DNA of 64,000 nt, from assembly GCF_036507355.1 (NCBI RefSeq), contig NZ_AP027877.1. One strand, given 5' to 3'. The position numbers are program-made. This document shows, one piece after another, positions 46,401-49,400 of this stretch. Within the stretch, counting starts at the first letter, position 1. Every line of letters starts with the position of its first letter. This DNA is from Escherichia coli. Lineage in GTDB: Bacteria > Pseudomonadota > Gammaproteobacteria > Enterobacterales > Enterobacteriaceae.

Positions 46401-49400
46401 GCTGGGTCAATAAAGGTACCCGGCTGCGCCGCTTCCGGGAGGTGTATACCGAAATCCCCCGTAAGAACGGCAAATCGGCAATCTCTGCCGGTGTTGCCCT
46501 GTATTGTTTTGCCTGTGATAACGAGTTTGGCGCGGAAGTGTATTCCGGTGCCACGACAGAGAAACAGGCGTGGGAAGTCTTTCGCCCGGCGCGACTGATG
46601 TGTAAACGCACACCCATGCTGACGGAAGCGTTCGGGATTGAGGTTAACGCCTCAAACATGAACCGTCCGGAGGATGGCGCGCGGTTTGAACCGCTGATCG
46701 GTAACCCCGGTGATGGTTCATCACCCCACTGTGCTGTGGTGGATGAATATCACGAGCATGCCACAGATGCACTTTACACCACGATGCTTACCGGGATGGG
46801 CGCGCGACGTCAGCCACTGATGTGGGCCATTACTACTGCCGGGTACAACATTGAGGGGCCGTGCTACGACAAGCGGCGGGAAGTCATCGAGATGCTCAAC
46901 GGCTCGGTGCCCAACGATGAACTGTTCGGGATCATCTATACCGTTGATGAAGGTGACGACTGGACCGACCCGCAGGTGCTGGAAAAAGCCAATCCAAATA
47001 TTGGCGTGTCGGTTTATCGCGAATTTTTGTTAAGTCAGCAGCAGCGTGCGAAAAATAACGCCCGTCTGGCAAACGTCTTTAAAACAAAACACCTCAATAT
47101 CTGGGTGTCGGCGCGTTCGGCGTATTTCAACCTGGTGAGCTGGCAGAGCTGCGAGGATAAATCACTGACCCTTGAGCAGTTCGAGGGGCAGCCGTGCATT
47201 CTGGCCTTTGACCTGGCGCGCAAGCTGGATATGAACAGCATGGCGCGACTTTATACCCGCGAGATTGACGGTAAAACGCATTACTACAGTGTGGCCCCGC
47301 GTTTCTGGGTACCGTATGACACGGTGTACAGCGTCGAGAAAAATGAAGATCGCCGGACAGCCGAACGCTTTCAGAAATGGGTGGAAATGGGCGTTCTGAC
47401 CGTTACCGATGGTGCGGAGGTGGATTATCGCTACATCCTCGAGGAGGCCAAAGCGGCGAACAAAATCAGCCCGGTCAGTGAGTCACCCATCGACCCCTTC
47501 GGGGCGACCGGGTTGTCACATGACCTTGCTGATGAAGACCTGAACCCCATCACTATCATTCAGAACTACACCAACATGTCCGACCCGATGAAAGAGCTGG
47601 AAGCGGCAATTGAATCGGGGCGCTTTCATCATGATGGCAATCCCATCATGACCTGGTGTATCGGCAACGTGGTCGGCAAAACCATTCCGGGTAACGATGA
47701 TGTGGTGAAGCCCGTCAAAGAGCAGGCGGAAAACAAAATCGATGGTGCAGTTGCGCTGATTATGGCGGTTGGCAGAGCCATGCTGTACGAGAAAGAAGAC
47801 ACGCTGTCTGACCACATTGAGTCCTATGGGATCCGCTCGCTTTAACTGAGGTAATTATGATCATGCTGATTCTCGCGCCTCTGGTGGGCGTGCTGGGGGC
47901 GCTTTTGCTGGCGTATGGTGCCTGGCTGATTTATCCCCCGGCGGGGTTTGTTGTTGCCGGGGCGTTGTGCCTGTTCTGGTCGTGGCTGGTGGCGCGATAT
48001 CTCGACCGTACACAGTCGTCTGTCGGCGGAGGTAAATAGTGTTCTTTTCGGGATTATTTCAACGAAAAAGTGACGCACCGGTGACCACGCCAGCAGAGCT
48101 GGCGGATGCTATCGGGTTGTCCTACGACACCTATACCGGAAAGCAGATCAGCAGCCAGCGGGCCATGCGACTGACGGCGGTTTTTTCCTGTGTCAGGGTG
48201 CTGGCGGAGTCGGTCGGGATGTTGCCCTGCAACCTGTATCACCTGAACGGCAGCCTGAAGCAGAGAGCCACTGGCGAACGTCTGCATAAGCTGATCTCCA
48301 CGCATCCCAATGGCTATATGACGCCGCAGGAGTTCTGGGAGCTGGTGGTCACCTGTCTGTGCCTGCGGGGAAACTTTTACGCCTACAAAGTGAAAGCATT
48401 TGGCGAAGTGGCTGAACTGCTGCCCGTCGATCCCGGCTGTGTGGTACCGAAGCTTAACAGTAGCTGGGAGCCGATCTATCAGGTCACATTCCCGGATGGC
48501 TCCACGGATGTACTGAGCCAGGAGGATATCTGGCATGTGCGCACGCTGACGCTGGACGGACTGGTGGGGCTGAATCCCATCGCCTATGCCCGCGAGGCAA
48601 TATCGCTGGCAGCTGCGACCGAAGAGCACGGGGCCAGACTGTTCAGCAATGGCGCGGTGACGTCGGGTGTGTTGCGTACAGAGCAGACGCTGTCAGATCA
48701 GGCTTATGAGCGCCTGAAGAAAGATTTTGAGGAGCGTCACACCGGGCTTGGCAATGCTCACCGCCCGATGATCCTTGAGATGGGGCTGGACTGGAAGTCG
48801 ATGGCGCTGAACGCCGAGGACAGCCAGTTCCTGGAAACCCGCAAGTTTCAGCTTGAAGAAATCTGTCGTCTGTTCCGGGTGCCGTTGCACATGGTGCAGA
48901 ACACCGATCGCGCCACCTTCAACAATATCGAAGAGCTGGGGCTGGGATTTATCAACTATTCACTGGTGCCGTATCTGACCCGCATCGAACAGCGGATCAA
49001 CACCGGACTGGTACGAAAAAGTAAGCAGGGCGTTTATTACGCCAAATTTAACGCCGGGGCGTTACTGCGCGGGGATATGAAGTCCCGTTTTGAAGCCTAC
49101 GCCACCGGGATCAACTGGGGAATTTACTCTCCCAATGACTGCCGCGACCTGGAAGATATGAATCCGCGTCCCGGTGGTGATGTCTATCTCACACCGATGA
49201 ACATGACCACGAAACCCTCCGATGGCAGTAAGGCCGGTAAGCAGAAGGATAACGCCAATGCAGACGAAACAACGTCTTGATGTACTGCTGAGTCTGAAAT
49301 CTGTCAGTGACTCCGGTGAGTTTGAAGGGTATGGCTCCGTCTTTGGTGTAAAGGACAGCCACGATGATGTGGTGATGTCCGGGGCATTTGCTGCTTCCCT

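Follow-up and report, generated by a model that had tools for sequence, protein, structure and literature searches.

ymfR encodes a predicted membrane hairpin between the large terminase and portal genes of an Escherichia coli prophage and its distant relatives

Introduction

Why should a gene for a small membrane protein lie between the large terminase and portal genes of a tailed-phage head module? The question arises at a prophage within a 64,000-nt stretch of Escherichia coli DNA (NCBI RefSeq assembly GCF_036507355.1, contig NZ_AP027877.1; hereafter the window), in which an earlier note had singled out a small hydrophobic open reading frame (ORF) between terL and the portal gene, at a place where it considered a membrane protein unexpected. 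Here we report that this ORF is, with near certainty, ymfR: a genuine protein-coding gene that an e14/SfI-like prophage carries and that belongs to the family phrog_502. Nor is its presence a surprise at this locus: ymfR has long been annotated, and a homologous hairpin is predicted in this exact slot at every family locus found, so that a membrane hairpin is normal here. The gene is already known (as ymfR, phrog_502 and IPR020297); the family-wide pattern has no Pfam family and was not found in the searchable literature.

Identity and coding potential of ymfR

The product encoded in the window is 100% identical over 60 residues to YmfR of E. coli K-12 (b1150, e14 cryptic prophage; UniProt YMFR_ECOLI). 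Its residues 1–55 match positions 3–57 of the 58 in the profile of phrog_502, annotated 'membrane protein' (E 2.5e-28) and placed by PHROGs in the category 'moron, auxiliary metabolic gene and host takeover'; all 72/72 diverse relatives tested match the same family. RefSeq calls the protein 'protein YmfR' or 'IPR020297 domain-containing protein'. A 701-bp junction probe found matches in 1592/5426 complete E. coli genomes, where the PGAP/RefSeq name is 'ymfR: protein YmfR', and the same ORF stands in the same place in phages SfI, SfII, SfIV, ST64B, phiP27, 118970_sal3 and phi467. Conservation of the frame in related prophages, on which the earlier note had made its claim depend, is thus seen in these E. 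coli genomes, in SfI, SfII, SfIV, ST64B and phiP27, and far beyond. The deposited names differ, ranging over 'membrane protein', 'putative integral membrane protein', 'hypothetical protein' and 'head-tail joining protein W', the last in the records of vB_EcoM-720R4, -689R6 and -606R7 and of Salmonella phage As1. A family member goes unannotated in the SfIV record KC814930 (locus L001, 2298-2483) and in Burkholderia phage vB_PR1 (L130, ~2215-2400).

Searches of other collections returned little. No Pfam or NCBIfam family was found for the YmfR query, and none that was convincing in Pfam for the 72 relatives; a profile search of all PDB sequences gave only chance-level aquaporin matches; and the defence models of PADLOC-DB gave no match for YmfR and, across the 72 members, one weak match (LeoBC, E 0.0035).

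In the ORF listing of the window, ymfR runs from an ATG start through 60 codons to a TAG stop (Table 1). Together with two hydrophobic stretches and a modelled hairpin (below), this bears out the earlier description of a 60-residue ORF with two transmembrane (TM) helices. The 11-bp flanks ascribed to it hold on the left side only, where the spacer from the terL TAA stop to the ymfR ATG, read from the sequence, is 11 nt (CTGAGGTAATT). On the right there is no spacer: the ymfR TAG (48037..48039) and the GTG start of the portal gene have a G in common, an overlap of 1 nt. From this stop/start overlap and the portal Shine–Dalgarno sequence within the last codons of ymfR, the two genes are very likely translationally coupled, and the C-terminal GG[EDK] would be conserved because the Shine–Dalgarno GGAGG of the portal is encoded there.

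The pattern of substitution is that of a coding gene. Among 23 distinct 60-codon enterobacterial alleles, the median ratio of nonsynonymous to synonymous substitution rates (dN/dS) is 0.12, with 0.09 in the hairpin and 0.21 in the tail, and the 25 distinct ymfR DNA alleles specify no more than 10 proteins. Stops interrupt four of the five remaining frames in 22-23 of the 23 alleles; the antisense frame that makes up the fifth is open in 17/23, as is expected of the complement of a GC-rich frame rich in Gly, Ala, Leu and Pro. On these alignments ymfR is under purifying selection, far beyond what a chance ORF would experience. A 78-aa antisense ORF (47842..48078, − strand) covers the entire gene and gave no sign of coding.

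A predicted membrane hairpin with a conserved turn

YmfR is strongly hydrophobic (grand average of hydropathy, GRAVY, +1.22), with Kyte–Doolittle hydrophobic stretches at approximately residues 2-25 and 29-46 on either side of a Y-P-P-A-G turn. AlphaFold2 (AF2), given an alignment of 72 sequences, models helices at residues 2-25 and 29-56 (mean predicted local distance difference test, pLDDT, 85.7) and leaves residues 26-28 non-helical, so that YmfR is predicted with good confidence to be a helical hairpin. Lysine and arginine average 1.8 and 1.7 per family member in the two tails against 0.14 in the loop, which by the positive-inside rule would put both termini in the cytoplasm and the turn outside. 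YmfR is therefore probably inserted in the cytoplasmic membrane with its N and C termini inside and a tight, conserved W-x-x-Y-P-P-A-G turn outside.

Conservation is concentrated in the hairpin. In an alignment of 72 diverse members (A2), G21, P28 and G35 are invariant and G14, W23 and G30 nearly so, the turn, with P28 and G30, being the best-conserved part of the protein. Close relatives (alignment A1) in addition keep G11 and G14 invariant alongside G21 in the first helix and C38, L39, W41 and S42 in the second; their tails are poorly conserved apart from the terminal Gly-Gly codons. Four relatives (P0152, P0165, P0171 and P0215) carry tandem duplications, two copies of the hairpin per 102-122-aa protein, which suggests that the hairpin works as a dimer or oligomer.

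A widespread family locked to one genomic position

How far does the family reach? A word-indexed search recovered 167 relatives, with identity down to 58%, from Escherichia, Salmonella, Shigella, Citrobacter, Hafnia, Yersinia, Klebsiella, Buttiauxella and Enterobacter. A profile built from 24 relatives and run against 1.84 billion representative proteins then gave 383 clusters at E<=1e-3; nearly all among the 150 of these that were listed are 45-90 aa long. The common architecture is a variable, often basic N-terminal extension, a small-residue TM1, the turn motif, TM2 and a short basic tail, and the family turn motif, [YF]G[AV]W[LM][IV]Y[xP]PAG[FY]I, is present in YmfR. A first scan of viral contigs returned only near-identical E. 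coli-type copies and was uninformative on diversity. In distant loci the hairpin core is 45-60% identical to that of the window where terL is at ~20-25% and the portal at ~30-35%, a comparison in which the core values come from short local alignments of the best-conserved part.

Throughout this range the gene keeps its place. In every context examined, ~55 loci plus named phages, it lies directly between terL and the portal gene, and none was found at another genomic position. Divergent members from metagenomic and genomic contigs (L082, L083, L085/L086 and L087) share the order HNH, Terminase_4, TerL, X, portal, protease, capsid, in which X is the ymfR-like gene, independently of protease type (S78 or S49) and tail type (sipho- or myovirus), and on a 599-bp contig (L084) a ymfR-like gene overlaps the portal start. 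Among the loci drawn from the Genome Taxonomy Database (GTDB) with one genome per species, the gene was called between terL and portal in 35/36 (two of these without a terL call), and the 36th (L094) is cut at a contig end, its fragment still abutting the portal start. These loci span Alphaproteobacteria (Reyranella, Bradyrhizobium, Rhizobium, Azospirillum, Sulfitobacter and Sphingopyxis), Betaproteobacteria (Sterolibacterium and Rhodoferax), Gammaproteobacteria (Lysobacterales, Mangrovibacter, Providencia, Edwardsiella and Citrobacter) and, on the Gram-positive side, Actinomycetes (Streptosporangium, Thermocatellispora, Planobispora and Streptomyces) and Ruminococcaceae.

The junctions themselves are also alike. 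The stop codon overlaps the portal start in 35/42 loci, by 1 nt (TGATG, TAATG or TAGTG) or 4 nt (ATGA), and in 32/39 the start codon lies between -20 and +12 nt relative to the terL stop; start codons at the related loci were chosen heuristically as those nearest the junction, and the overlaps are visible directly in the junction sequences. G-rich gene ends like the portal Shine–Dalgarno region of the window recur in distant loci. The gene accompanies 7/7 portals of the Rhizobium-type clade, at 66-71% identity to the Rhizobium portal (on seven viral contigs), and 0/3 portals at 40-42% identity to it. A membrane protein in this slot is thus the rule for the lineage and no anomaly of the window.

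Among named phages we sampled 14, spread down a ranking of 1488 phage records with a related portal. Five of the 14 have a family gene at the junction, with E values that are relative to a very small database: Yersinia YeP1 (5e-18), Burkholderia vB_PR1 (1.6e-8), Vibrio K283 (5e-5), Mycobacterium phage Pound (gp10, annotated 'membrane protein', 5e-4) and Salmonella F1055 (6.5e-3), the assignments of Pound and F1055 resting partly on position and architecture. A sixth, Streptomyces phage Chymera, has in the same slot an analogue of the same architecture, the 60-aa, two-TM gp03, that the family profile does not score.

Three further observations concern these loci. A 5.6-kb contig of the metagenome-assembled genome 'Bacillota bacterium' OH_SDB_141 (L117; JAEWTL010000102.1) carries terL, ymfR and portal genes 98-100% identical to those of the window prophage; the contig most likely comes from an enterobacterium, through mis-binning or contamination, and is no Firmicutes occurrence. 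Portal N termini at ~30 loci (in the window, 48039..48070) mostly begin with a short hydrophobic motif, such as MFFSGLF, MAGLFGAI, MAGLFGA or MSLFGLF. We rejected this motif as a sign of interaction with YmfR: several portals without a YmfR-like neighbour have it too, and that of HK544 lacks it. Finally, some loci are mosaic relative to the window (L083, L114 and L122 against L087 and L130), the portal being at 72-83% identity and terL at 36-37% in some, and terL at 68-77% and the portal at 34-41% in others. YmfR similarity seemed higher in the mosaic group of high portal identity; the simple correlation is not significant.

Expression context

The surroundings of ymfR point to expression with its neighbours. 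No sigma-70-like promoter stands above chance before the gene (3 sites in 5.7 kb, against 4.5 expected from shuffled sequence), and a terminator-like hairpin within it (47875-47902) was set aside, as its fold energy is not better than that of shuffles (z -1.3). The G+C content at third codon positions (GC3) is 0.70 in ymfR against 0.65 and 0.69 in the neighbours; the excess in overall GC (0.61 against 0.54 and 0.56) is explained by Gly, Ala, Leu and Pro codons. In an intact relative, a single rightward block holds an antiterminator, two holin-family genes, an endolysin, HNH, terS, terL, ymfR, portal, protease, capsid and tail genes. Published work found on ymfR comprises deletion lists, use of the locus as a neutral integration site, deletion in K-12 giving no phenotype (PMC9145139), one transcriptome table, in which K-12 ymfR mRNA rises ~23-fold (log2FC 4.5) with other e14 genes under an SOS-inducing beta-lactam conjugate (PMC10012262), and one overexpression screen of uncharacterised membrane proteins, in which YmfR figures in the first round only (PMC10299036).

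HNH and terS are preceded by the holin-family genes, the endolysin gene and Rz/Rz1, and ymfR is ~3.5 kb away, beside the portal gene; the location of the Rz and Rz1 genes in the window (Table 1) shows that ymfR is no part of the lysis cassette. Another small and very hydrophobic ORF, of 67 aa and apparently with two TM helices, occupies the interval from the lysis genes to HNH. Its block is a different cassette, as the window diverges from the relative NZ_CP030939 upstream of position 45145.

A possible role in head morphogenesis and its rivals

In the structural modules of tailed phages gene order follows function, and add-on genes are mostly sporadic and self-contained. Because gene order tracks function in this way, and add-ons are usually sporadic, we rank first a role linked to the portal. 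Locked between terL and portal across bacterial phyla, YmfR would be a membrane-embedded accessory of the portal/terminase step in head morphogenesis and not a lysogenic-conversion gene. It would be made late, from an operon of lysis genes, HNH, terS, terL, ymfR, portal, protease and capsid, and one possibility is that it serves as an anchor or nucleation site that brings the formation of the portal ring, the initiation of the prohead or packaging to the membrane. It would be helpful yet dispensable, since some related head modules do without the gene. We hold this late-expressed membrane accessory of the portal/terminase step only tentatively. Unlikely in our estimation is a wider form of it, in which phrog_502 hairpins, produced in step with the portal, would be an unrecognised, phylum-spanning membrane component of the HNH–terS–terL–portal module and would physically couple the cytoplasmic membrane to DNA packaging, or to the initiation of portal rings or proheads, in a large share of HK97-fold tailed phages.

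Several lines of evidence weigh against a role at the portal. First, the gene is missing where it might have been expected: terL abuts or overlaps the portal gene in HK97-like HK544, Paracoccus Shpa and Stenotrophomonas Silvanus, only short terL–portal gaps are seen in Moraxella Mcat28 and Bacillus Carmel_SA, and the three portals at 40-42% identity to the Rhizobium portal are without it, so YmfR is not a core requirement of HK97-type assembly. Second, the slot can hold other cargo (MazF in Campylobacter CJIE4-3 and a MerR regulator in Streptococcus Javan102; also Ruminococcus NatCom_28775), and the MazF and MerR occupants indicate that the junction tolerates accessory genes. Third, the conserved part of YmfR is the membrane-embedded turn, and the cytoplasmic tails that would be able to touch the soluble portal or terminase are short and variable. 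Fourth, YmfR identity does not correlate significantly with that of portal or terL (Spearman rho 0.27 and 0.35, both non-significant), local-alignment identities being a poor measure of co-inheritance, for which we make no claim beyond individual mosaics. Fifth, no functional study of ymfR or phrog_502 was found in the searchable literature. Lastly, in the cell sampled here YmfR has no productive morphogenetic role, the prophage having lost capsid, sheath and other tail genes (below).

The third of these points leads to the main rival, a late membrane effector unrelated to assembly, which we regard as somewhat unlikely. Its hairpin oligomer would tune lysis timing or membrane potential, in the manner of an antiholin or pinholin, or block the entry of DNA from superinfecting or sibling phages. 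We rank it second because intramembrane conservation fits self-assembly or a conserved host membrane target equally well; such conservation even suits these better than a fast-evolving phage partner. The hairpin has the look of class II holins and small exclusion proteins (small, two TM helices, small-residue motifs and a charged C-terminal tail), the tandem duplications hint at oligomers, the gene is dispensable in some related phages, and its PHROGs category extends to host takeover. Yet the prophage family already has a full lysis cassette elsewhere (two holin-family genes, endolysin and Rz/Rz1), and wherever a cassette is visible the gene is never beside it and always beside the portal. 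This includes actinobacteriophages, whose lysis cassettes are located after the tail genes (PMC7302621). Neither the query nor the 72 relatives matched a holin family in Pfam or PHROG, nor did the query match a PADLOC defence model, and such a role calls for neither a strict position lock nor stop/start coupling to the portal.

A classic moron or lysogenic-conversion gene, expressed independently (for superinfection exclusion, say, like HK97 gp15) and landed in a permissive junction, is improbable. The PHROG category would fit, presence across HK97-family head modules is patchy, and other phages do carry unrelated cargo at the terL–portal junction (also PMC7302621). But ymfR lacks a promoter and a terminator of its own, is tightly joined to terL by its 11-nt spacer and to portal by its 1-nt overlap, and resembles its neighbours in GC3. 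It is, besides, stably inherited within portal clades and conserved across phyla, with no other genomic position in ~55 loci. In K-12 it is induced along with the e14 lytic genes, and so does not look constitutive, and the lack of a deletion phenotype (PMC9145139) speaks against conversion as well.

The coupling itself might be all that the ORF provides, as a functionless peptide whose translation would carry ribosomes over from terL to the portal gene and fix the dosage of portal protein. Stop/start overlap at most junctions, a portal Shine–Dalgarno sequence in the last codons and a tail poorly conserved save for the Gly-Gly that encodes it are what such a spacer would leave, and in phages without the gene the portal is coupled directly to terL. 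A spacer has no need of a specific motif, however, and the invariant G21, P28 and G35 kept across Proteobacteria, Actinomycetes and Firmicutes, with a dN/dS of 0.09 in the hairpin, make this highly improbable. A head-tail joining (head completion) protein like lambda gpW, as four deposited phage records name it and as the shared slot between large terminase A and portal B would allow, is effectively refuted by sequence and predicted fold, the query and 72 relatives having no Pfam match (the gpW family included), the PDB search only its chance-level aquaporin matches, and YmfR being a very hydrophobic predicted TM hairpin against a soluble gpW. What probability these readings leave falls to something not yet imagined.

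The prophage copy in the window

Compared with the intact relative NZ_CP030939, the window prophage has lost ~4.2 kb; the deletion begins inside the major capsid gene, stops close to the 3' end of the sheath gene and leaves the prophage unable to make heads or tails. In the resulting chimeric ORF, ~70 N-terminal coiled-coil residues of capsid origin are followed by the tail sheath's C-terminal domain (Table 1). A second break, at ~51117-51120 (window 50938..51566), brings together two truncated genes: one for a tail assembly protein, of which a 60-aa fragment aligning with positions 15-67 of the 201 in the phrog_166 profile is left, and one for a baseplate wedge/YmfQ-like protein that has lost its N terminus and aligns with positions 56-201 of the 224 in phrog_203. 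The tape measure gene and most baseplate genes of the relatives are missing, and next to fadL the best-matching genomes extend over 35.6 kb for what is a 24-kb stretch of the window.

Table 1. Features of ymfR, the terL–portal junction and nearby prophage genes, in window coordinates
Feature	Position	Strand	Evidence
ymfR coding sequence	47857..48039	+	ORF call; K-12 YmfR identity; phrog_502 match; dN/dS ~0.12
YmfR predicted first TM helix, codons 2-25, small-residue-rich	47860..47931	+	Kyte–Doolittle; AF2; alignments A1/A2
YmfR predicted Y-P-P-A-G tight turn, codons 26-30	47932..47946	+	Alignment A2; motif listing; AF2
YmfR predicted second TM helix, codons 31-46	47947..47994	+	Kyte–Doolittle; AF2; alignments
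YmfR C-terminal tail, codons 47-60, short, basic and polar	47995..48036	+	Alignment A1
Putative GAGG Shine–Dalgarno for ymfR, within the 11-nt spacer	47848..47851	+	Sequence reading
Putative GGAGG Shine–Dalgarno for portal, inside final Gly codons of ymfR	48028..48032	+	Sequence GGC GGA GGT AAA TAG TG
TAGTG stop/start overlap of ymfR and portal, 1 nt	48037..48041	+	Sequence reading
terL, large terminase subunit, 577 aa, upstream neighbour	46112..47845	+	Pfam PF03354 TerL_ATPase E 8.5e-26; PF20441 TerL_nuclease E 5.3e-34
Portal gene, HK97 family, GTG start, 413 aa, downstream neighbour	48039..49280	+	Pfam PF04860 Phage_portal E 6e-108
HNH endonuclease, upstream module member	45076..45495	+	Pfam PF01844 E 3.4e-16
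terS, P27-family small terminase, upstream module member	45612..46115	+	Pfam PF05119 E 2.4e-21
Rz-like spanin	43890..44345	+	phrog_13 E 2e-69
Rz1-type o-spanin candidate ORF, +1 frame within Rz-like gene	44095..44292	+	Lipobox-like LVVSGC; proline-rich stretch
67-aa ORF, very hydrophobic, with two apparent TM helices, between lysis genes and HNH	44876..45079	+	phrog_12304, full length, E 2e-44
Capsid–sheath chimera ORF (junction ~50135-50137)	49923..50582		Phage_sheath_1C (PF17482) residues 98-210

Comparison with known systems

For the window, then, ymfR is an ordinary, correctly annotatable gene in a decaying prophage, and nothing at the locus is anomalous. Its nearest known counterpart is e14 of K-12, where ymfR has the same neighbours: upstream the remnant of a terminase gene (aaaE/ymfN), and downstream that of a portal gene (beeE), which it overlaps by 1 nt. 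The two differ in that terL and portal are truncated in e14 and intact in the window, in their internal deletions, and in site, the window prophage lying near fadL and not at the e14 site.

At the level of the family, the moron category given to phrog_502 is at odds with the operon anatomy and position lock seen here. Few uncharacterised small genes of the HK97-type head module are as well conserved: its core surpasses terL and portal in this respect, its position is the same in Gram-negative and Gram-positive hosts, and it is often unannotated or misnamed. We regard this family-wide pattern as modestly interesting and as a readily testable lead.

HK97 gp15-type morons have their own promoter and terminator, and class II holins and pinholins a place in the lysis cassette. 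YmfR is like both in being a small, predicted inner-membrane phage protein of the kind with one or two TM helices, and has a holin-like charged C terminus, but ymfR has no promoter or terminator of its own and stands outside the lysis cassette, and no sequence match to them was found. Should YmfR nonetheless prove to be a true late membrane effector, it would represent a new and very widespread class.

In lambda, the W gene lies between those of the large terminase (A) and the portal (B), and gpW is a soluble alpha/beta protein. The likeness to ymfR, in size class and genomic slot, is positional only: there is no sequence similarity, and YmfR is predicted to be a TM hairpin.

We know of no membrane step in HK97-type head assembly; to our knowledge, such a step in head assembly is so far known only for T4-like and membrane-containing viruses. 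In T4, gp40 and gp20 take part in a membrane-bound initiation of the portal. In PRD1, the small membrane proteins P20 and P22 link the packaging ATPase to the unique vertex (PMC5850374). Neither system is homologous to YmfR or has its genes in this arrangement, and PRD1 differs further in having an internal membrane; both nevertheless show small membrane proteins assisting the portal or packaging vertex, and so offer a precedent for the mechanism that we prefer. If YmfR is a true membrane link of portal or packaging, textbook pictures of how these heads assemble would need changing.

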